The notes: generated from the letters alone by a model not told the origin. Shown: positions 1,906 to 11,090, counted from the stretch's first letter. The stretch is DNA of 11,090 nt from a virus (IMGVR_UViG_2737471840_000003:1-11090), one strand, 5' to 3'. A program made the numbers and translations.

Positions 1906-2001
1906 ATCAGCCACCGTTTACTGTGCATAATGAACCCCCTTAGTTGGTAAGTCCATCATACACAATAAACCATATATGGATAAGTTTACCTCGGATAACT
2001 C

Positions 2002-2030
2002 TTAACTAAATTACCTTATGGGTATATATT
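2002..2030 (+). promoter_or_regulatory. Candidate sigma70-type promoter for the acyltransferase gene
   Basis: TTAACT (2002..2007), a 17-nt spacer, then TATATT (2025..2030), about 50 nt upstream of ATG 2079 in a very AT-rich divergent intergenic region. Hexamer matching only, and AT-rich DNA gives many chance matches. Confidence 0.3.
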
Positions 2031-2078
2031 GTAGTTAATGATTGTGGAACCCATTAAAAATATTGGATAAATATTAAA

Positions 2079-3068
2079 ATGAATGAGAAGAACTATGGTG
2101 TAGTTTTAGCTCGTTTCATCGCCATTGTGCTGGTGGTGTTGCTGCATGTTGCTGCTGGTCCAGTTGGTGCAAAGTCTTCGCCTGATTGGGATTGGGCTAA
2201 CGTATATAGTGCCATATCAAAGCAATGCATTGGTATTTTCATAGTTATAACAGGGTTTCTTTACTACCATAAAAAGAAATTCGAATTCTATGATTACATT
2301 AAAAAGGGGTTTAATGTATTATTTGTCCCTCTTGTATTTTGGTGGGTAATATATGCATCTTATTACATTATATTTAAAGATGCTTCCGTAAGCAGCTTTA
2401 ATATTATGAAGCCATCTGCTGTCCATCTATGGTTTATGTATCATTATATTGCGATTTACATGTTTCTCCCGATGATAATTATTGGATGCCAACGCATGGA
2501 TTTGCGGTATAACGTGATGATATTTTTAATTCTATTCTATGGGAATTCTGTACACCCACAGCTAAAGAATTTCATTCCTAATGCACCATCTATAGATATT
2601 CCATTTGTAAGTACATTAATGTTCTATATTTTTGCCGGATGTATAGTTGCAAGACTTGAAAGCCATATCATAAAATTACGCGCTTTCATTTCGTTAACTG
2701 CTGTTATCCTTGCGGTTATATGTGTCTTTACAAATAAGGCTATATTGATTCATGGGATCAAAGGAGTAAACCTAAGCAACTTTAGCCCCATTGTTGGCAT
2801 GACAGCAATAGCAACAACCTGCGCCTGCATTGGATACGCAGACAGAATAAGCAAAAATGCAAATAAACTTGTAACTCTAATTTCCGAATATGCATTTGGA
2901 ATTTATCTTATACATCCTATTATTATATTTATAACATGGAAAATAGCTCCAGTATCAAATTATGCATGGGGAATACCTGTTGCAACTATATTTTATGTCT
3001 TTGCGTCCATGTTGATAGCTGTGATACTTTCAAAAACTCCTTTGTTAAATAGGGTGATAGCCAAGTAA
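2079..3068 (+). CDS. Acyltransferase family 3 integral membrane protein, probable O-antigen/polysaccharide O-acetyltransferase (lysogenic-conversion moron)
   Basis: 329-aa ORF that is hydrophobic throughout, with about 10 predicted TM segments. The N-terminus (YGVVLARFIAIVLVVLLHVAAGP) carries the conserved Arg and His positions I associate with acyltransferase-3 enzymes. Its length is close to short phage Oac-type acetylases. It lies on the opposite strand to all flanking phage genes, is very AT-rich (about 27-32% GC on hand-counted lines), and ends at a bidirectional terminator. Confidence 0.8.
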   Translation: MNEKNYGVVLARFIAIVLVVLLHVAAGPVGAKSSPDWDWANVYSAISKQCIGIFIVITGFLYYHKKKFEFYDYIKKGFNVLFVPLVFWWVIYASYYIIFKDASVSSFNIMKPSAVHLWFMYHYIAIYMFLPMIIIGCQRMDLRYNVMIFLILFYGNSVHPQLKNFIPNAPSIDIPFVSTLMFYIFAGCIVARLESHIIKLRAFISLTAVILAVICVFTNKAILIHGIKGVNLSNFSPIVGMTAIATTCACIGYADRISKNANKLVTLISEYAFGIYLIHPIIIFITWKIAPVSNYAWGIPVATIFYVFASMLIAVILSKTPLLNRVIAK

Positions 3069-3097
3069 AAAAAAAGCCCCTCTACGGGGCATTTTTT
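3067..3097. terminator. Bidirectional rho-independent terminator between convergent acyltransferase and tailspike genes
   Basis: An A-run (3067..3075), a stem GCCCC (3076..3080) / GGGGC (3086..3090) with loop TCTAC, then a T-run (3092..3097). It reads as hairpin plus U-tract on both strands. It overlaps both stop codons. Confidence 0.65.
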
Positions 3098-5780
3098 AAA
3101 TAGCAGAAATAATGAAACATAACATCTCATCATATCTCAAAGAGTAACCATCACCAGCTTCGCAACCTGAGAATGTCATGATTCCATTTTCATCATATTC
3201 TGGTTCCTTCTTATCCCACTTATCGTAGCAAACCATCCCATAACGCATGGGATCTAGCCCTTCATCCTCGAACGCAGAGATAACATCCTGGACAATTGCA
3301 CCTATATGATATCTTGCGCCATCGCCTTTAATAGCTACCGCATCCTTCATTCTGTACCGACAAATCATTCCCTTAATCTTGATAGCCACGCGCTTTTCGG
3401 CTTCACTTATATCCTCGAAATCTGTCTTCTTTCTTCTGTCAGATGTGTTAATGGAACCAGAATCGGCGTAGACCTGAGTCCATTTAAATGATGCACTCCC
3501 GTTAGACTGCGCGCTAGCGACGCCAGGCAATACCTGATCACTGTAAATCTGAAGAGATTGAGTCCCACCACTTTCACTTGTCACTGTCGGATTTGTGAAG
3601 AAGAAAATAGCATTAGGGTTTAAAGTACCCCCTGAGCCGATAACAAGAGGCGTAGAGGTACCGGTATAGTTTATTTGAGCGATGCCAACTTCTTTTCCTG
3701 TTGACGTTGTAAATGATATTTTGCCTAAACCACCTGAATTATTAATATTAAGCTTTGTTCCTGACAATGAGCGCCTTGTAGCTGTCCATGACCCAATGCT
3801 GCCAACTACGGAATAAATTTCTAGCCCAAGTACAGTACCGGAGGATTCAATAATGAATCCTGCATTGTTCAGATTAGTAACATGGTAAATTTGTCCTGTT
3901 ACGTAGTTAAGACCAGGTATCGTGGTGAGCGAAGGAGCAATGGTTGAAAACCAAGAGAACTCAGTTATGTTTAATGAAGCCATTAAATCAAGAATTTGAG
4001 AAACACTGCTGAAGACTGTATTTAAGACTGGATCGCGCAATTCCCCACGCTCCGAACGCATGAGCCTATTAAATCCATATGTTGGGAGAGGACAATATCC
4101 GGAAGCGGCATCCAGCATGTTAAATCCATCCCGTGAAAACTCCCTCATTATAACAATGCCATTGGGTGTGCTAGGAGATGATTCAGCCATATCACCGATA
4201 AGAATTGAATGGATAGTGCCGTCAGGGTGCTTGAAACATCCCTCTGACTCTGTTCTTGAGACGGTGCAACCGTTTGATGCCAGATAAGTCATCAACTTAT
4301 CTGATTTCACAACAGAGTGGTCTATTAACTCACCAGAGAGTGACACTCTGAGGACTCCGTAATCATGAACAGGGTATTTTGCATCATCAAATGTAGGACG
4401 ATAACTGCCACCTACGCCTATATGAAGGATCCCATTTTTGTATGCTATACCCTGAATTTTCCATACCATGTAATAGTAGGTAGGGGAGAGCTCTGGAGTT
4501 GCAAACCCTGTAAGCATCTGAGAGACATTTATTGTTCCCTGCTTCTCACCTGTATCAAGACGATAAGAATTTATAACAGTCTGTGATTGTGACAATCCTA
4601 CTGGTGTCGCGTTTAATGTGCAGAAGAGTAAATTACCATCAATGCACATATGTGATCCAGCCGACTGAATTGTCGTTATTGTGTGCCCTGAAAGCGTGCT
4701 ACCTGCTGCGGGTAATGTGGTTATGTCATAATAATAAACAAAATCATCCCCAAGACGTCTGTCATACAATCTACGTGATGAACTTCCGCCATATATAGCC
4801 ACAGACTGATTACTACTGTTTGGACTATAAAACCACGTTACTTGCTCTCCTGCCTGGTTATAAACAACTATAACCCTAAGCGCCCCTCCAGCATTAGGCA
4901 CATAGTTAATGAAGAGTAGACCATCATCATCATAGTCAGCACCCTGCGGGTATATGATGCTTCCAGCTCCAATTGCCGCCAGTGCATCAGAATACCCATC
5001 GAACTGAAATGGAAGTTTGTAGATTATTTTTTTCCTGAAATTCTGATCTTTAATGGCACTACCAACAGTACCGTCAGGATACTGGATAGAATCGCTATAA
5101 CCTGATAACCCGGCACCTGTTGGTTTCACTAATTCAACAAGAACATCAGTGGCAGAACCAGATGGCGGCAATGTTACAAAAGGAGACCCACTATTATCGA
5201 AGGCTATTATCTTGTTCGCCCTGACAGCGGCAGATGGAAGTGTGGGTATAGGTTCAGGTGTTCTTAGCGTTCTGTTGAGATTGGTTTCAGAAATACTGTC
5301 TACATAGTTCTTTGTAGCAGCATCTTGCGGCCGAGATGGATCCCTGAGATTTCTGATATAGTTGCCCAGGGCGTCATAATAGTTGGCTACAAAGGATGGT
5401 TTTCTTAACGACAGACTAAACCAACTTCTTACCTGCTGAACAAGCATAGTTAACTTATCAAATGCATCCTCATGCACTTCTGCAAAAAACTTCCCCTGGT
5501 TCCTTAGGTCTGTTTCTTGGGTAACCGGCAACTCTCTTGAAATAGAAATCTTATACCCATTGCCTAAAGCAGTTGATAAAACAACATTCCCCCCCGTGTA
5601 TCCACCAGTACCTGTAATCGAATAATCAGTATCAAGCACAAGAGTGGTTATATTTTCATCCAGATCAACAACCTGCACAACCAGGTCTGACTTCTGAAAA
5701 ATTCGAAAGGTATAAGGAAATGAAGTCGTAACGCCATTACCTGTATATTCGTTATGGTCAACTTCGGTTGAGACCGTCAT
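3096..5780 (-). CDS. Tailspike / tail fibre protein with C-terminal intramolecular chaperone (peptidase S74-like) domain
   Basis: 894-aa ORF with ATG at 5780 and SD GGAG 9 nt upstream. The N-terminal roughly 120 aa (MTVSTEVDHNEYTGNGVTTSFPYTFRIFQKSDLVVQVVD...) resemble the conserved particle-binding module of epsilon15-like tailspikes as I recall it. The C-terminal 115 aa begin SDRRKKTDFEDIS and contain YHIGAIVQDV, which fits the S74 autoproteolytic chaperone pattern. The central part is Ser/Thr/Gly/Asn-rich and looks beta-rich. Confidence 0.9.
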   Translation of the reverse strand: MTVSTEVDHNEYTGNGVTTSFPYTFRIFQKSDLVVQVVDLDENITTLVLDTDYSITGTGGYTGGNVVLSTALGNGYKISISRELPVTQETDLRNQGKFFAEVHEDAFDKLTMLVQQVRSWFSLSLRKPSFVANYYDALGNYIRNLRDPSRPQDAATKNYVDSISETNLNRTLRTPEPIPTLPSAAVRANKIIAFDNSGSPFVTLPPSGSATDVLVELVKPTGAGLSGYSDSIQYPDGTVGSAIKDQNFRKKIIYKLPFQFDGYSDALAAIGAGSIIYPQGADYDDDGLLFINYVPNAGGALRVIVVYNQAGEQVTWFYSPNSSNQSVAIYGGSSSRRLYDRRLGDDFVYYYDITTLPAAGSTLSGHTITTIQSAGSHMCIDGNLLFCTLNATPVGLSQSQTVINSYRLDTGEKQGTINVSQMLTGFATPELSPTYYYMVWKIQGIAYKNGILHIGVGGSYRPTFDDAKYPVHDYGVLRVSLSGELIDHSVVKSDKLMTYLASNGCTVSRTESEGCFKHPDGTIHSILIGDMAESSPSTPNGIVIMREFSRDGFNMLDAASGYCPLPTYGFNRLMRSERGELRDPVLNTVFSSVSQILDLMASLNITEFSWFSTIAPSLTTIPGLNYVTGQIYHVTNLNNAGFIIESSGTVLGLEIYSVVGSIGSWTATRRSLSGTKLNINNSGGLGKISFTTSTGKEVGIAQINYTGTSTPLVIGSGGTLNPNAIFFFTNPTVTSESGGTQSLQIYSDQVLPGVASAQSNGSASFKWTQVYADSGSINTSDRRKKTDFEDISEAEKRVAIKIKGMICRYRMKDAVAIKGDGARYHIGAIVQDVISAFEDEGLDPMRYGMVCYDKWDKKEPEYDENGIMTFSGCEAGDGYSLRYDEMLCFIISAI
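3099..3443 (-). other. Predicted S74-type autocleaving chaperone domain of the tailspike (C-terminal 115 codons)
   Basis: Begins at the Ser codon (3441..3443) of the SDRRKK motif and runs to the last sense codon. By analogy with endosialidase and T5 L-shaped fibre chaperone domains, cleavage is expected at this Ser. Confidence 0.6.
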
Positions 5781-5834
5781 GTTAAATCTCCAGATAGTCG
5801 CAGCACCCGTTGCGCCGCATATCCGGTTATTCTA

Positions 5835-5899
5835 TTACCTGAAAAACCACATATGGATAGATAAACCATAAATACGAACAGATATTACCTTTCAGGTGA
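5835..5899. promoter_or_regulatory. Inverted-repeat element in the divergent intergenic region upstream of the tailspike
   Basis: TTACCTGAAA (5835..5844) and TTTCAGGTGA (5890..5899) are inverted 10-bp arms with one mismatch, 45 bp apart. The right arm also forms a local hairpin ACCT-TTC-AGGT (5887..5897). They sit 55-120 nt upstream of the tailspike ATG. Function unknown. Confidence 0.3.
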
Positions 5900-5975
5900 T
5901 TCGCAAAACGTGCTGGATAGCAAACAAATTATTTGCTACTGTATAAATATACAGTTATTGCATGGAGAAGATAAG

Positions 5976-6233
5976 ATGCAGCAGTATCACTATCCACTGG
6001 AAGACGGATTTACCGAAAGGATTCACACGCCGGGAGGCGTCAGGTCACTGGTGGAGGGATCGCACTTGATGAAATTACTCCGGGATCTCGATAAGGATGG
6101 ATTTAATGTCGATGGCCCACTTGCCGAACTGACTGCACTGATTAACTACGTCACCAGCTCACAGATGTCTATGCAGGATCTGCAAACACATCTCGACTAT
6201 TGTGCCGAACAATTACGAAAACAAATCCGGTAA
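5976..6233 (+). CDS. Hypothetical small protein (85 aa), orphan plus-strand gene between virion genes and tailspike
   Basis: ATG at 5976 with SD GGAG 8 nt upstream. The track ORF 5910..6233 starts at GTG with an implausible N-terminus. A TGTATAAAT element at 5940..5948 is -10-like. GC content matches the phage core (34/60 on line 6001). Stop TAA is at 6231..6233, followed by the hairpin at 6241..6256. I recognise no family for MQQYHYPLEDGFTERIHTPGGVRSLVEG.... Confidence 0.5.
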   Translation: MQQYHYPLEDGFTERIHTPGGVRSLVEGSHLMKLLRDLDKDGFNVDGPLAELTALINYVTSSQMSMQDLQTHLDYCAEQLRKQIR

Positions 6234-6240
6234 ATTTAAG

Positions 6241-6256
6241 GGCCGCGAAAGCGGCC
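6241..6256. terminator. GC-rich hairpin, probable terminator for the convergent small genes and the upstream virion operon
   Basis: GGCCGC-GAAA-GCGGCC is a perfect 6-bp stem with a GNRA-type loop. On the minus strand it is followed by CTTAAATTT, a weak U-tract; there is no T-run on the plus strand. It lies between the stop of the 85-aa plus-strand ORF and the stop of the 46-aa minus-strand ORF. Confidence 0.4.
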
Positions 6257-6276
6257 TGTGACATGTCACACTCAAG

Positions 6277-6417
6277 CTATGACAAACCTATGTACCCTGC
6301 TACACCAGATAATATCAAAACAACTGCTACAGCAAATTCACCGTCTTCAATGATACATTTACGATTCATAACGCCAAGGGCAACAAGCACAAATACAACA
6401 AGAATAAAAGCAATCAT
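6277..6417 (-). CDS. Unannotated 46-aa two-TM membrane peptide (not in the ORF track)
   Basis: ATG at 6417 with SD AAGGA 6 nt upstream; the SD overlaps the TAA stop of the 824-aa gene (minus strand reads CCGCAA-TAA-GGATGAGAA-ATG). My hand translation is MIAFILVVFVLVALGVMNRKCIIEDGEFAVAVVLILSGVAGYIGLS, with stop TAG at 6279..6277. It shows two hydrophobic segments separated by a short charged loop (NRKCIIEDGE). Confidence 0.4.
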   Translation of the reverse strand: MIAFILVVFVLVALGVMNRKCIIEDGEFAVAVVLILSGVAGYIGLS

Positions 6418-6426
6418 TTCTCATCC

Positions 6427-8901
6427 TTATTGCGGAGTGACATCCTGAGGTCGCCACCAGTATGTCTGGTTAAACTCTTTCTTCGAACGTTGCTCCATTT
6501 TACGCAAATAGCCTGGTGAAAAATACTCCTGCATCTGGTTAAAGATCATGTGATCGAGAGCCGCCTTCAAGTACCAGAGATTCGCACCTGGCATCAAACC
6601 TTTCCCCAGCTTCACCAGATCACCACCAGTCTGCTCACTCTTCCCTTCCACAGCATTTAACGGTATGCCCTGAGCAATCTTCACTACGTCATCAACCAGA
6701 CCAGCCACCGGGCCAAGCATCGACGCCAGCGCGCCGCTTCCGTACCTAGTGTGATCTGACAATAAAAAGTCACCGTAAAGGCCAAGACCACCACCTTTCA
6801 ATAGAGCACCAAGCCAGAATTTTGCGGCATCTTCTCCTGTCATCTCGCGAGGATTACGACCAGACGCAAGGTCGTTAAGTTGCTGCGACAAAGCTCCAAG
6901 AATGGTCGTACTGGCAATAAACGTCGCAATATATGCCGCACGCCCACCAGCAGACGGCATACCCATAGCGCGTGACCAGTGACGCATAACCACCGAGATA
7001 GGGAACGATTTAAACAGGAAAACACTTCTCGTTAATTCACCTTTCCATGTTCCACGCTGAATACCAGAACCGGTTATCAGTTGCTCACGTGCTCCCGGTG
7101 TAATAACAGCCATATCAACTTCTTCAGTTACGGCACCGAGCAGTTTACGCATTGCCTCAAATTTCACGCGTTCAGGCTCACCAAGATGTTTAACTGCTGA
7201 ATCAGGGATACGCATAATGCTTTCCGGTGTCAGCATCGTATTATTACCGTTCCCCCAGTCCTCCTGTTGCGCCAACTTCCATACGCTCCAGTCTGTGTCA
7301 GTAATCCCTTTGCTTTTCAGGATACGAAAATCAGAGTCATCGAGGCTACGAAGGCCTGGTGTCCGTGACACTACTTCTCCCAGGCTTCCCATCATGGTTA
7401 CGCCATAGGCGCGCTTGTGCGCATCTGACCATGCTGTAAGCCCACTGGCACGCATTACCGCCGTTGCAGCCCAACGAGACACAGACGGCCCCATATTATC
7501 CATCGCCCAGCGGTTAACGCTGCCAAGTAGAGATTCCATCGCCAGACCAGCGCGGCGCGCCCGCGCAAGCTCAGTACGGTTCGTTGGGTCCATAGCTTCA
7601 AGCTGGTTGCGGAATAACTGGTTCATCGGAAGGTTGGTCACCTTCGCAGACAGATACATGGTTCCAAGATCAGAGAACGATGACAGCAACGCGGATCCGA
7701 GTCTGCTGGCAACCAGCCAGTTGCGGATATTGTCAGACCATCGCGCGATGTGCGGATTCGCTACAGGCTGTGTCTTTCCGGAAATAAAGTTGTACAGATT
7801 CTCTGTGTTGTTCGCCAGCCGCTCGACTTTACCGGTTTTACTCGGGTTAGCTGTTGCCGTTTCTGCCTTAACCTGATCAAGAAGGGAGCGGAAAACATGA
7901 TCGGGGTTTGGACCATATGTTTCCACCAGAGCAATATCTTTACTGATACCTTCCAGGTGACCGACCATGATTTCCCATAGAGAGCGATCGCCATAAAGTT
8001 GTTGATATTGGAGATAGGAATCTGCATCTTTGAAATGTATCTGTCGTGATGCATTACCACGGTTAGCACGTGCGCCGGAAATTCGCATTCCGGTATCAGT
8101 AAGCTTATTCAGCCCACCAGTAGCGATCGTGTTATAAGCCTCTCCAAGAAATGCAGACAACTCGGCATCGTTCATCAGTTGTCCATCGGCTCGGGTATAA
8201 TATTTGCGATCCAGCTTACCTATAACATCGCTAACCCATTTATCTTTTGATACCGCACCAACCTTTTCCATAGAATGATGTTGAGGGATCCCCCAGTTTT
8301 CGAGATAGCCAATGTCCCCACCAGCATCATTAAACCGGCGGCGCAGCAGCTCTGTAACTTCTCTCCACGCCTTAGCACCTTTTCTTGCTTTAGCATTGCC
8401 AGTATTTTGCCCCCGCATTTCATATACCAGGTCACGTACGCCCGCTTCATCTTCAAACAGACCAAAAAAGCGAGGATCAACTGCTTCGAATGCCTCCTGC
8501 AATTGACTCAATGCATAATCACGGGTGGCTTTTGTTCTGGATTCAACAGAGAGGAAATTAGATTTACCGTCTGCATTAAAAGCTATAGTACGGTTAAGAG
8601 CGCCAAGTTTCCCATCAGCCCCTTGATAGCTATTGATAAATTTATCCAATCTCTGACGCGCGGCTATAGTGAGAGCCACACGACGTTTCTTTAATGCCGC
8701 TTCTCGCTGTAATTCTTCAGATGCCAATTGTGCTGCTCGATATAGCCGCTCTGATTCGGAAAGTTGTCGCCACGACATCGGGTCATCACGAGCAATGGAG
8801 CGCATATTTCGATAAATGCGGTCTTCAATGTTTTGTATTTCTCGCGCCGTTAAAGTGCGCTGCGCCGCCTGCTGGACCGCTTGTATACATTCCTGTCTCA
8901 T
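6427..8901 (-). CDS. Large virion protein (824 aa), putative internal core / ejection protein
   Basis: ATG at 8901 with SD GAGG about 11 nt upstream, 5 nt after the stop of the 600-aa gene. It has a helical, charged N-terminus and C-terminal Gly-rich hydrophobic stretches (AAYIATFIASTTILGAL, FWLGALLKGGGLGLYGDFLL, LASMLGPVAGLV). No enzymatic motif recognised. The function is inferred from size, composition and position upstream of the tailspike. Confidence 0.8.
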   Translation of the reverse strand: MRQECIQAVQQAAQRTLTAREIQNIEDRIYRNMRSIARDDPMSWRQLSESERLYRAAQLASEELQREAALKKRRVALTIAARQRLDKFINSYQGADGKLGALNRTIAFNADGKSNFLSVESRTKATRDYALSQLQEAFEAVDPRFFGLFEDEAGVRDLVYEMRGQNTGNAKARKGAKAWREVTELLRRRFNDAGGDIGYLENWGIPQHHSMEKVGAVSKDKWVSDVIGKLDRKYYTRADGQLMNDAELSAFLGEAYNTIATGGLNKLTDTGMRISGARANRGNASRQIHFKDADSYLQYQQLYGDRSLWEIMVGHLEGISKDIALVETYGPNPDHVFRSLLDQVKAETATANPSKTGKVERLANNTENLYNFISGKTQPVANPHIARWSDNIRNWLVASRLGSALLSSFSDLGTMYLSAKVTNLPMNQLFRNQLEAMDPTNRTELARARRAGLAMESLLGSVNRWAMDNMGPSVSRWAATAVMRASGLTAWSDAHKRAYGVTMMGSLGEVVSRTPGLRSLDDSDFRILKSKGITDTDWSVWKLAQQEDWGNGNNTMLTPESIMRIPDSAVKHLGEPERVKFEAMRKLLGAVTEEVDMAVITPGAREQLITGSGIQRGTWKGELTRSVFLFKSFPISVVMRHWSRAMGMPSAGGRAAYIATFIASTTILGALSQQLNDLASGRNPREMTGEDAAKFWLGALLKGGGLGLYGDFLLSDHTRYGSGALASMLGPVAGLVDDVVKIAQGIPLNAVEGKSEQTGGDLVKLGKGLMPGANLWYLKAALDHMIFNQMQEYFSPGYLRKMEQRSKKEFNQTYWWRPQDVTPQ

Positions 8902-8906
8902 TTAAT

Positions 8907-10709
8907 TTAACCTCTCAAGAAACACGCCACAGCGACATCAAACAGGCTGGAATCCTGTATTGCCTGCTCACTTTCCCTGTTCGCTTCATCCAGTACTTCA
9001 CGCGCGCTGCGCGATTGTGGATTACCATCATCATCCAGCACGGTGATTATCATGTCAGGTGATTCAAGCAGCGAGTCTTCAGCTATGCGCAGATCAATAT
9101 CTCCTGCCGGATCTGCCATCATTTTTTGTTCTGTCTGTTGCAATATCTTACCGGGCTCAAAAGGAGCTACTTCGTCTGGCGTCCTGACCTCTGCTGTTTT
9201 ATAGAATGAAACAGCCTGAGCATTAAGTTCACTTTCTGCCTGCTGTCGTCGTGCCAGTTCTGCTCGAGCTTCAAAAAACTGACCGCCAGGCTCATGCGGT
9301 GCCAACGCGTTACGGGAAAATTCCAGGCGCTCTTGTGCCTGCCGGATTCGTTGGTCAATATCGCGAAGTCTGACCTGTTTATCTGATCGAGCACGAGACA
9401 AAGCTTTACCGCTACCGGTTGGCTCTTCTGCAAGAATTTGTGCGCGCTGTTCAGTGAGATTTTCAATAATTCGTTGGCTATTAGCGATTTCAGACTGGTA
9501 AACCTGTCTATCGCCACGCGGCAAAAGCTGCGCGGCCTGTTCTTCAAGCAACCGATTTTCTATAGCGCGCGCCGTTACTCCATCATCTACAGATGACAGA
9601 GCCTCATTAACTGCCTGAGACAGCAGACTCTTGCGCCCAGGAATTTCACTGAAAGATGCAGACTCAACAATGCTGGCAACGTCTACAGGTCTCCCCTGGC
9701 TAACATCAGACATAGCTTTTCGCAGAGCCTGAATGTGAGAATTGCGCGAAAGCACGTTGATCGGCACGCCGGGCGCAATATCAATTTCAGCATGATGAGC
9801 GGCATTCGCCGCCAGTGCAGCATCAACATCAACTGGTGAAAAATTTGGTGCGCTTGTAGACTCGCCGCGAGAGTTCATAAATCTGCCGACACCACCAAAC
9901 GCCACCCCAAGAACAGCATCAATAGCAATTGCCTGTCGATCCAACACATCATACTGGTTAGCCATTTCGCTATAGCCACCATCACGAAGCGTTTTTGCAG
10001 TAAGCCCACGCTGTGCCATACCGAACGCAATATTTGTACCTGCGGCATAGGCAATATCTGGCGTTGCACGTACTGCTGTTGCTGCGGCGCGTCGCACTGA
10101 ACTTTCACCCGTCCGCGCAAGCTGGGCCGCCACACCTTCCGCCAGCGCACCACCAGCACGTAACCCGAGGCTCATAGGGATCAGTGTTCCGGCACCAGCA
10201 GTAATACCCTGCACTAATCCCGCTTCCTGCGCCGTCCTGAAATCAACACCCTGTGCTGTCAGCCGTTCAAACTCAGAAAAACCCTGTAGAGAAGTTACCG
10301 CCGCAGCACCTCCGACCGGACCACCGAGCGTTGTACCGACAACAGCCTGCCCTCCCATATCGAACAACCCATAAAGGACCTGCCCGGCGGTTCCGGTTGT
10401 CGCGGCATCAGGCGTCAGCCGCTTAACCTGCTGCTCTGCTAGTTTTCTCTGCTCAGCAATGTATGAAACTGAAGTGTCATTAAGCGAGGTGTTTTCGTTA
10501 ACAAACTGAGCAATCGGGGATACGATTTTATCCATCCCTGCCCATAGCAACTGATCTGGCTTTGCCACCAGCCCGGAGTACAAACCAGACAATGCCGCTC
10601 CTACAGCATTGTCGAAAAAACCAACATTGCTGTTAAAGCCAGCTGGATTTGATGCTGCTTCGTCAAGCTGCTGATTCTGGCTTACTGGATTAAGGCCAAA
10701 GTAACTCAT
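8907..10709 (-). CDS. Large Gly/Ala-rich virion protein (600 aa), putative internal core / ejection protein
   Basis: ATG at 10709 overlaps the upstream gene's stop as ATGA (10706..10709); GGAG lies about 10 nt upstream. It has long Gly/Ala-rich low-complexity stretches (VVGTTLGGPVGGAAAVTSL, GITAGAGTLIPMSLGLRAGGALAEGVAAQLA) and a charged helical region (EQRAQILAEE...RQAQERLE). No enzymatic motif recognised. Confidence 0.8.
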   Translation of the reverse strand: MSYFGLNPVSQNQQLDEAASNPAGFNSNVGFFDNAVGAALSGLYSGLVAKPDQLLWAGMDKIVSPIAQFVNENTSLNDTSVSYIAEQRKLAEQQVKRLTPDAATTGTAGQVLYGLFDMGGQAVVGTTLGGPVGGAAAVTSLQGFSEFERLTAQGVDFRTAQEAGLVQGITAGAGTLIPMSLGLRAGGALAEGVAAQLARTGESSVRRAAATAVRATPDIAYAAGTNIAFGMAQRGLTAKTLRDGGYSEMANQYDVLDRQAIAIDAVLGVAFGGVGRFMNSRGESTSAPNFSPVDVDAALAANAAHHAEIDIAPGVPINVLSRNSHIQALRKAMSDVSQGRPVDVASIVESASFSEIPGRKSLLSQAVNEALSSVDDGVTARAIENRLLEEQAAQLLPRGDRQVYQSEIANSQRIIENLTEQRAQILAEEPTGSGKALSRARSDKQVRLRDIDQRIRQAQERLEFSRNALAPHEPGGQFFEARAELARRQQAESELNAQAVSFYKTAEVRTPDEVAPFEPGKILQQTEQKMMADPAGDIDLRIAEDSLLESPDMIITVLDDDGNPQSRSAREVLDEANRESEQAIQDSSLFDVAVACFLRG

Positions 10710-11090
10710 TGCGGAATATCTCCGGAGAATCTCTGACGTTTCTGTGTCAGATTAAGAACAACGGGAGAACCATCATCTTTCAGCAGATAACCAGTACCAA
10801 GTTTCACCAGGTACTGACTATCGCCGTAACTTTGCAAACCATACTGACCAGGCGGTGTTTTTATCCCGGAGCCGACAACTTGTTCATTCCAAGCCTGATT
10901 AACCTGCTTATCGAATTGCTCTGCAGACATTCCCCACGGCAAAAGGACATTCCCCATTCCGTTATAGTCATGCACGCCACCTGTAGCTACGTTAACAGCC
11001 TGTTTCCAGACATCATTGTCAATTTCGCCTGATACCACGCCTTTTTTCGCCATCACGCCAGCGTAATAGTCCTTTGCGATCTCGTATGCC
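10706..11090 (-). CDS. Phage late-operon protein, probably 5'-truncated at the window edge
   Basis: The track ORF 10706..11056 starts at a GTG. The same frame stays open with no stop up to the window edge (..AYEIAKDYYAG-V-MAKKGVVSGEID..), so the gene may begin beyond 11090. An internal ATG at 11053 has only a poorly spaced AGGA 19 nt upstream. Product unknown. Confidence 0.55.
   Translation of the reverse strand, partial: AYEIAKDYYAGVMAKKGVVSGEIDNDVWKQAVNVATGGVHDYNGMGNVLLPWGMSAEQFDKQVNQAWNEQVVGSGIKTPPGQYGLQSYGDSQYLVKLGTGYLLKDDGSPVVLNLTQKRQRFSGDIPQ

Follow-up and report, generated by a model that had tools for sequence, protein, structure and literature searches.

A putative host-range and seroconversion module of the phiV10 type in a Uetakevirus prophage of Escherichia coli

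Introduction

In the temperate podovirus phiV10 a tail fibre (gp25) and an acyltransferase (Oac, gp26) form an O157-specific pair for host range and O-acetylation immunity, with oac experimentally characterised (Perry et al. 2009, FEMS Microbiol Lett 292:182, as cited in PMC9558356). Here we analysed viral DNA of 11,090 nucleotides (nt; IMGVR_UViG_2737471840_000003:1-11090, the whole of which we call the window), in which a tailspike gene and a convergent acyltransferase gene lie in an AT-rich region. Like phiV10, which belongs to the same genus, the window holds a lysis cassette, a convergent acyltransferase of the AT3-only type, a tailspike, a gp19-like gene and virion genes, the latter with 98 % identical DNA, and the low GC content of the pair is shared as well. 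The two differ in that the window's tailspike, unrelated to that of phiV10 past about amino acid (aa) 230, has a core predicted to be a beta-propeller and an S74 chaperone, in that its anchor allele has 73 % nucleotide identity and the acyltransferase 26 % identity to Oac (E = 5e-18), and in the predicted receptor, which is O28ac/O42 and not O157.

The tailspikes of Sf6 and P22 are beta-helix endorhamnosidases. The gtr/oac modules behind the tailspikes of these phages (Sf6 OacA and the P22-like Lederbergvirus group) likewise belong to temperate podoviruses with an O-antigen-specific tailspike, a modifier that blocks re-adsorption and an AT3-only acyltransferase (PMC9558356). They differ from the window in backbone and anchor domain; moreover, the RXXR motif in the first cytoplasmic loop, which is essential in Sf6 OacA (PMC9558356), is not conserved in the clade of the window's acyltransferase. 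Serogroup-specific subtypes of the receptor-binding proteins of Uetakevirus and Lederbergvirus prophages were described by Pas et al. 2023 (PMC10408124); these modular proteins again combine a conserved anchor with an exchangeable receptor-binding part that phages of different genera have in common. In that study tailspike subtypes track the O-serogroup, so that the receptor-binding protein of a prophage predicts the serogroup of its host, and a modification gene may lie behind the tailspike; O28ac/O42 is not among the subtypes, nor does the study describe an acyltransferase clade that strictly accompanies a single receptor-binding family. The exchanged part begins there after about aa 205, whereas in the window the anchor is exchanged too, from about codon 10. 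For the predicted core the closest described system is the beta-propeller platform of Gp45 from Staphylococcus phage phi11 (PDB 5efv), with 11 % sequence identity and a model of moderate confidence.

Results and discussion

The window is the end of a Uetakevirus prophage of E. coli, a temperate podovirus of the phiV10/epsilon15 type. Megablast matches were to phiV10, PAS61, phiv142-3, Tyrion, SPN1S and epsilon15-like phages. DNA identity to phiV10, PAS61 and phiv142-3 is 96-99 % in the virion genes of the right flank and 80-88 % in the lysis genes of the left flank, with identical order, so that nucleotide homology and the order of the lysis and virion genes both assign the window to the genus. 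The genes run from an Rz/DUF2514 spanin, a GH19 endolysin, a holin and a holin-like membrane protein to the acyltransferase (plus strand), and on through the tailspike (minus strand), a gp19-like small open reading frame (ORF) and a 46-aa ORF to virion proteins of 824 and 600 aa, which is the order of phiV10 including its convergent oac/tail fibre pair. Copies of the module at 99 % identity or more were found in three of 5426 complete E. coli genomes (E47, C6 and JML285), in a prophage adjoining yfgI; the full prophage adjoins yfgI in C6 and JML285.

With a probability of roughly 0.75, positions 1915-5780 are a host-range and seroconversion module of the phiV10 type, belonging to a temperate Uetakevirus prophage next to yfgI, that functions, moves and keeps its low GC content in the following way. 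The tailspike, with an anchor of conserved type, a beta-propeller core, a C-terminal beta-rich region and a self-cleaving S74 chaperone, would recognise the O28ac/O42 O-antigen, and the AT3-only acyltransferase, expressed from the prophage, would acylate that same O-antigen. This and similar phages would then no longer adsorb to the acylated O-antigen, amounting to lysogenic conversion and superinfection exclusion, which PMC9558356 reports as demonstrated experimentally for phiV10 Oac and Sf6 OacA. Between phages the module would be swapped by homologous recombination in the intergenic region upstream of the acyltransferase and in the first ten or so tailspike codons, and further exchange would occur at domain boundaries inside it. 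Gene identities, breakpoints, composition, linkage across backbones and the association with the host serogroup were observed directly; the model's predictions concern the substrate of the acyltransferase, phage exclusion and a possible enzymatic activity of the tailspike. A module of this kind, combining host recognition and surface modification, is already known; the tailspike and the acyltransferase lineage are new here. The features concerned are listed below.

1915-2078, no strand: intergenic region upstream of the acyltransferase, 30.5 % GC, holding the left homology break and a weak sigma-70-like site
2002-2030, plus strand: candidate sigma-70-like site, 9 of 12 positions matched
2079-3068, plus strand: AT3-only membrane acyltransferase, 329 aa, predicted O-antigen O-acetyltransferase (PF01757, PHROG 3333)
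3076-3090, no strand: intrinsic terminator acting in both directions, with the hairpin GCCCC-TCTAC-GGGGC between A7 and T6; the convergent genes are 27 nt apart here
3096-5780, minus strand: tailspike / receptor-binding protein, 894 aa (ORF; PHROG 1640 tail protein, E = 1e-125)
3099-3443, minus strand: C-terminal intramolecular chaperone, Peptidase_S74, aa 780-894 (PF13884, E = 5e-10)
3444-5075, minus strand: receptor-binding region, aa 236-779, no Pfam match, with a further C-terminal beta-rich region beyond the core
4131-5033, minus strand: receptor-binding core, about aa 250-550, predicted from structure modelling to be a beta-propeller and not a beta-helix
5076-5246, minus strand: linker/neck, aa 179-235, where protein similarity to other Uetakevirus tailspikes fades and DNA homology to a Hafnia phage begins (5171)
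5247-5780, minus strand: particle-binding anchor at the N-terminus, aa 1-178; its allele is divergent and richer in AT (GC 41 %, third-position GC (GC3) 0.355)
5735-5755, no strand: right-hand recombination breakpoint, about codons 9-15 of the tailspike, from a codon-registered comparison
5781-5975, no strand: conserved intergenic region, 37 % GC, separating the tailspike from the divergent gp19-like gene

The tailspike N-terminus is homologous to the tailspikes of phiV10, PAS61 and SPN1S, and the anchor also to fibre N-termini of the T7 supergroup (PDB match 28lx, Dpo31, aa 1-154). At the other end, PF13884 matched aa 780-842 with 40 bits (cut-off 22), and the PDB S74 domains 3gud, 6eu4, 4uw8 and 3gw6 matched aa 743-892. 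A Ser-Lys dyad, S780 and K785, can be read in the motif S-DRRK-K, the presumed S74 self-cleavage site, and the tailspike is presumably self-cleaved at S780. Beyond these two ends, a PDB sequence search left the receptor-binding core unmatched, and a scan of the GTDB species representatives gave no match to the receptor-binding part.

The acyltransferase matched PF01757 over residues 7-318 of 329 (E = 1e-36, 127 bits, cut-off 31) and carries this domain only, with no fused SGNH domain, which is the AT3-only architecture next to a tailspike in a temperate phage; it also matched PHROG 3333, 'O-acetyltransferase'. Its R12-X10-H23 is invariant in the window protein, in P0001-P0004 and in phiV10 Oac and corresponds to R/K-X10-H in the first transmembrane helix, the AT3 motif (PMC9558356). 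By analogy with the characterised enzymes, its predicted role is likely seroconversion and superinfection exclusion. Accordingly, the initial annotation had rightly placed a receptor-recognition gene and a likely receptor-modifying gene in the low-GC block. The terminator hairpin between the two genes is identical in two sibling prophages (L022 and L024), and the Hafnia locus L014 has a different G+C-rich hairpin in the same place.

The clade of this acyltransferase is small: among 5.8 billion proteins (5.8e9) it comprised four clusters (92, 75, 59 and 55 % identity), the next match standing at 28 %. All four, in four phage backbones, face the 3' end of a tail-fibre gene with an S74 domain, in convergent orientation. 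A neighbouring tailspike with a homologous receptor-binding part was confirmed for three of them (Uetakevirus, the Hafnia phage and a lambdoid prophage with gtrABC); for the fourth, L015, the contig ends in an S74 fragment of 180 aa, and a full tailspike and an OafA-like gene are present at the sibling locus L021. The loci and their amino acid identities to the window are as follows.

L008-L013, Uetakevirus prophages: receptor-binding part 99-100 %, acyltransferase 92 %
L014, contig of a Hafnia metagenome-assembled genome (terL, tailspike, the acyltransferase, holin, PF00959 endolysin, spanin): anchor 38 %, receptor-binding part 91 %, acyltransferase 75 %
L021 and L015, with an additional OafA-like AT3-SGNH gene: receptor-binding part 94 % (L021), acyltransferase 58 % (L021) and 59 % (L015)
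L016-L019, E. coli lambdoid prophages with the acyltransferase after gtrABC: receptor-binding part 90 %, S74 54 %, acyltransferase 55 %

The receptor-binding part is thus common to three other backbones at 90-94 %. A further homologue (73 %) occurs without an acyltransferase in L025, a backbone of lytic type (DNA polymerase A, SNF2). The linkage is old, because the acyltransferase lineages are saturated at synonymous sites (proportion of synonymous differences, pS, 0.69-0.81) and yet all were found beside this tailspike family. It is presumably maintained by selection, of which the strict co-occurrence in four backbones, with the acyltransferase missing in the lytic-type relative, is a clean example. 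O-antigen modifiers are also stacked behind this tailspike family, namely gtrABC followed by the acyltransferase (L016 5235-8987) or a 652-aa AT3-SGNH (OafA-like) gene followed by the acyltransferase (L021 8739-11712, L015 6003-8972).

It is unlikely that the acyltransferase acts on another envelope polymer (enterobacterial common antigen, capsule or peptidoglycan) or aids the host otherwise, its position being merely a permissive 'moron' slot. AT3-only proteins do act on many substrates (PMC9558356), the clade lacks a conserved RXXR, and other phages hold gtrABC or OafA-like genes in the slot. Those occupants, however, are O-antigen modifiers too, and the clade was found only beside this tailspike family, in four backbones, and is missing in the lytic-type relative. 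Moreover, phiV10 Oac, the nearest characterised homologue, occupies the same position and modifies the receptor O-antigen (PMC9558356).

Within the module the parts have different histories. In the Hafnia phage, which has a different backbone, a contiguous stretch of 3.07 kb over both genes (window 2107-5171) is shared at 82 % nucleotide identity. Synonymous divergence (dS; dS and pS by the Nei-Gojobori method, each locus against the window) was as follows.

L014 (Hafnia): acyltransferase about 1.9; tailspike propeller part 0.55, distal receptor-binding part 1.08, S74 0.24
L008: acyltransferase 0.21; receptor-binding part identical (dS 0)
L022: acyltransferase 0.05; propeller part saturated
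L024: acyltransferase 0.05; whole receptor-binding part saturated; anchor and S74 identical

Transfer of both genes as a single block was rejected on the grounds of this heterogeneity. The pair is a persistent syntenic association in which acyltransferase, receptor-binding core and S74 were exchanged separately; among sibling prophages either the acyltransferase or the receptor-binding core has been swapped by itself. The proposal of the initial annotation that the genes were acquired together as a host-range/seroconversion cassette therefore holds as far as a linked pair, one replaced block and the Hafnia stretch are concerned, and is not supported in the sense of a recent or single event; dS differs several-fold between the acyltransferase and the tailspike domains. 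In L022 (6706-8337) and L024 (6706-8334) anchor, S74 and acyltransferase are 98-100 % identical to the window and the receptor-binding core 84 % and 70 % at the amino acid level, as if one domain had been replaced while its surroundings stayed constant.

The O-antigen cluster of host C6 carries wzx and wzy annotated as O28ac/O42, glf, genes for a CDP-glycerol glycerophosphotransferase and a cytidylyltransferase, two GT2 genes and an acyltransferase gene. Of the 5426 complete E. coli genomes only 7 have the O28ac/O42 wzy, including all three that bear the module (hypergeometric chance about 1e-9 for three independent genomes, about 1e-6 if two are independent). This version of the module is probably specific for the rare O28ac/O42 surface sugar, a prediction on receptor specificity that can be tested and that concerns two rare serogroups on which little work exists. 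In the collections and literature searched, neither a receptor-binding protein of a phage nor a gene for seroconversion was found for O28ac/O42.

That the association reflects shared ancestry of the hosts or a co-varying receptor such as a capsule, and not O-antigen specificity of the tailspike, is also improbable. In its favour, the module occurs in only three complete genomes, and the lineage of E47 may not be independent of the other two. Against it, C6 (Panama, river) and JML285 (Japan, human) are 99.29 % identical over 18 kb of chromosomal flank and 97.8 % in the prophage, differing by 0.7 % and 2.2 %, and are therefore not one clone; in addition, tailspike subtypes of the genus track the O-serogroup (PMC10408124). 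The O28ac and O42 gene clusters were reported to be essentially identical (PMC4732683), which leaves room for a modifier outside the cluster, such as the acyltransferase, to tell the two serogroups apart. As a tentative idea, which we hold to be rather doubtful, the prophage acyltransferase might separate O28ac from O42, perhaps with a contribution of gtrABC/OafA-like modifiers, and the beta-propeller core might correspond, on the enterobacterial side, to the proteins with which phages of Gram-positive bacteria recognise teichoic acid, having adapted to an O-antigen that contains glycerol phosphate. If the acyltransferase did explain the split, a small question of E. coli serotyping would be settled. 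A functional parallel with phi11 Gp45 (a teichoic-acid-like, glycerol-phosphate target) is speculative, the one hint being the CDP-glycerol glycerophosphotransferase of the host cluster.

Comparison with related phages found DNA homology broken on both sides of the pair, at about 1980-2027 on the left and about 5750 (tailspike codon 10 or so) on the right. On the left it ends at 1991 (PAS61), 2027 (phiV10), 1979 (phiv142-3) and 1981 (SPN1S), inside the AT-rich intergenic region. Promoter-like sites in the island did not exceed those in shuffled sequence (13 vs 13.7 ± 4.0), and no promoter is claimed. On the right, blastn alignments resume at 5245-5303. A codon-registered comparison with PAS61, phiV10 and phiv142-3 gave 96-100 % identity between -425 and +25 relative to the tailspike ATG and 56-87 % from about codon 10 onward. 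Relative to the closest E. coli relatives, both genes are inside one replaced block at about 1990-5750, and homologous recombination in the conserved flanks would be the simplest mechanism of exchange. The region 5781-5975 is 84-100 % (mostly at least 96 %) identical by 45-nt bin to PAS61, phiV10 and phiv142-3, is equally AT-rich there, and belongs to the conserved backbone outside the swapped block. In E47 the tailspike and the gp19-like gene are parted by an ISL3-family element, ISKox3 (L005 7051-8366). It has window positions 5943-5950 on both sides, which fits an 8-bp target duplication, and the insertion may cut the tailspike off from upstream signals.

The anchor itself is 82-85 % identical in amino acids and 70-74 % in nucleotides to those of phiV10, PAS61 and SPN1S, and 68 % and 60 % to that of phiv142-3; over codons 11-165 nucleotide identity is 74 % (PAS61), 73 % (phiV10), 70.5 % (SPN1S) and 60 % (phiv142-3). 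Apart from the three cassette-bearing genomes, 5426 E. coli genomes and 50,697 phage records yielded no anchor allele above about 75 % nucleotide identity over most of the query; a few partial alignments of short length lay at 80-90 %. The allele is 99-100 % conserved in all Uetakevirus prophages bearing the module. Anchors of the relatives have 45-47 % GC and GC3 of 0.43-0.47, and the private changes of the window anchor comprise 37 strong-to-weak vs 15 weak-to-strong. Since the relatives' anchors also differ mutually by 18-37 % of nucleotides despite near-identical flanks, the exchange unit in Uetakevirus is essentially the whole tailspike gene. The usual model of a clean swap at the junction of anchor and receptor-binding part was thus rejected for this genus, the break lying at about codon 10 and the anchors being 18-40 % apart in nucleotides between tailspike types. 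This explains the AT-rich tailspike N-terminus, noted initially as unexpected had only the receptor-binding part been swapped: the anchor is not the backbone's allele but a divergent one that arrived with the rest of the gene. In the Hafnia locus a backbone-specific anchor has 49 % GC, hence a sharp GC step at the junction of anchor and receptor-binding part.

An AT-rich island inside GC-richer phage DNA had been proposed initially, and sliding-window GC, segmentation and GC3 all bear out a discrete shift. Mean GC is 39.9 % at 1915-5975, compared to 51.7 % at 1-1914 and 50.1 % at 6427-11090; by 60-nt lines it is 40.0 % in the island and 50.6 % in the flanks (Mann-Whitney p = 2e-15; chi-square of island vs flanks p = 2e-26). 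All ten 60-nt hand counts were reproduced (acyltransferase 26.7 and 31.7 %, tailspike 33-42 %, flanks 52-58 %); these lines overstate the contrast, those in the flanks lying above the flank mean and those in the tailspike mostly below the tailspike mean. In 300-nt windows the flanks have 46-57 % (151-1950) and mostly 45-60 % (6451-11090), with a trough of 31-37 % at 1951-3150 and a plateau of 39-46 % at about 3150-6600. The segmentation best by the Bayesian information criterion has four segments with breaks near 1941, 3141 and 6551 and GC contents of 51.6, 34.0 (acyltransferase), 42.8 (tailspike and upstream) and 50.3 %. The compositional right edge lies at about 6550, some 575 nt past 5975. 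The island is two-tiered: the acyltransferase (GC 35.1 %, GC3 0.32) is lower than the tailspike (42.5 %, 0.36; p = 6e-5). Lysis genes have 46-56 % and downstream virion genes 49.5-51.5 % GC, and GC3 of 20 core genes of the same prophage is 0.41-0.61 (mean 0.50; overall GC 50.8 %), both island genes falling outside this range. GC3 along the virion genes (L004 24527-43919 in C6; window 6427-11056) is 0.42-0.45 nearest the tailspike and 0.54-0.61 in portal, capsid and terminase; by this gradient the tailspike-proximal part of the structural module is already drifting toward AT.

The same slot in four relatives was occupied by genes without DNA-level homology to those of the window and equally poor in GC.

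phiV10: receptor-binding part 41.7 % GC, acyltransferase 30.9 %
SPN1S: receptor-binding part 39.4 %, acyltransferase 35-38 %
PAS61: receptor-binding part 40.3 %, acyltransferase 38.3 %
phiv142-3: receptor-binding part 36.7 %, no acyltransferase

Genome-wide GC is 49-50 % (phiV10, SPN1S), and the adjacent gene for the 824-aa virion protein has 49-52 % in all four, so these relatives do not carry their slot genes at core composition. Across all backbones the acyltransferase has 35-37 % GC, the tailspike (mostly the receptor-binding part) 43-44 % and backbone genes 49-55 %. Because unrelated slot genes of the relatives are equally AT-rich and GC was kept despite saturated synonymous divergence, low GC is a standing, genus-wide property of genes in this slot and not the scar of a recent import; reading it as a sign of joint acquisition, as was first done, is not upheld, and low GC in phage host-range modules should not be taken for recent import. 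The O-antigen cluster of C6 has 34.4 % GC and GC3 of 0.28-0.34, and a model of its codon usage describes the acyltransferase and all segments of the tailspike better than models of phage-core or housekeeping genes do. Direct derivation of the acyltransferase from this cluster was rejected, as it is unrelated to the acyltransferase inside the cluster.

A classical genomic island, meaning a single recent transfer of both genes from a donor of low GC content, with amelioration to the phage's composition still pending, is very unlikely. The discrete shift coinciding with sharp homology breaks on both sides would fit it, as would the contiguous block shared with the Hafnia phage. However, the composition is not atypical for this position in relatives, the acyltransferase lineages stay at 35-37 % GC in four backbones despite saturation, the dS values against the Hafnia copy (about 1.9 for the acyltransferase, 0.24-1.1 for tailspike domains) indicate that histories are not shared, and the two genes differ in GC. 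Moreover, a search for direct or inverted repeats flanking the island, as expected for transposition or site-specific insertion, found none, and there are no mobility genes among the window ORFs. The notion that low GC is a mere by-product of a hydrophobic membrane protein and a beta-rich, Ser/Thr/Asn/Gly-rich fibre, uninformative on origin and exchange, is hardly tenable. In its favour, amino acid composition explains 9.0 of the 15.7 points by which the acyltransferase falls short of the 20 core genes and 3.1 of the 8.3 points for the tailspike. Against it, the remaining 6.7 and 5.3 points are synonymous and stem from codon choice, the homology breaks coincide with composition breaks, and the GC3 and codon-model results already refute it in part.

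Several points weigh against the module as we propose it. Context and host association are what point to the acyltransferase substrate and the tailspike receptor, and the serogroup association comprises three genomes from at least two independent lineages. The structure model is moderately confident (mean predicted local distance difference test 58), with a fold assignment that covers the core only. RXXR is replaced in the acyltransferase clade by K-K-G-F-N or L-K-G-I-N, with only K76 invariant, whereas phiV10 Oac has R-A-N-R; a K-for-R substitution may be tolerated there. The receptor-binding cores of L022 and L024 differ from that of the window by 16-30 % in amino acids beside the same acyltransferase, which weakens specificity for one O-antigen across the whole family. 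Finally, several candidate causes compete for the persistent AT-richness, namely a shared gene pool, H-NS-type silencing and low-expression codon usage.

Other features of the window and related prophages

Positions 6234-6426 of the window, between the gp19-like gene and the 46-aa ORF, are a variable 'moron' slot, at which homology to phiV10 is broken (6233/6241); a Bro-N antirepressor-type gene lies there in phiV10, phiv142-3 and L022 and none in the window, PAS61 and C6. Positions 1-110 are AT-rich (33.6 % GC); they lie at the end of the prophage close to yfgI, past the spanin gene on its downstream side, and phiV10 has an annotated terminator in the matching region. The mechanical call of the endolysin ORF (590-1381) runs to a TTG at 1381 (263 aa); judged by the 627-630 nt annotated in relatives, its true start would be at about 1216-1219, overlapping the holin stop. 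In the lytic-type locus, L025 8748-11213 encodes an SNF2-family protein with intein-type matches (Hom_end_hint, LAGLIDADG_3). Between the terminase and the small ORF on the portal side, the JML285 prophage has a tRNA-Arg gene (L028 40940-41016) and a gene of the Gp49 family; other small ORFs occupy this place in C6.

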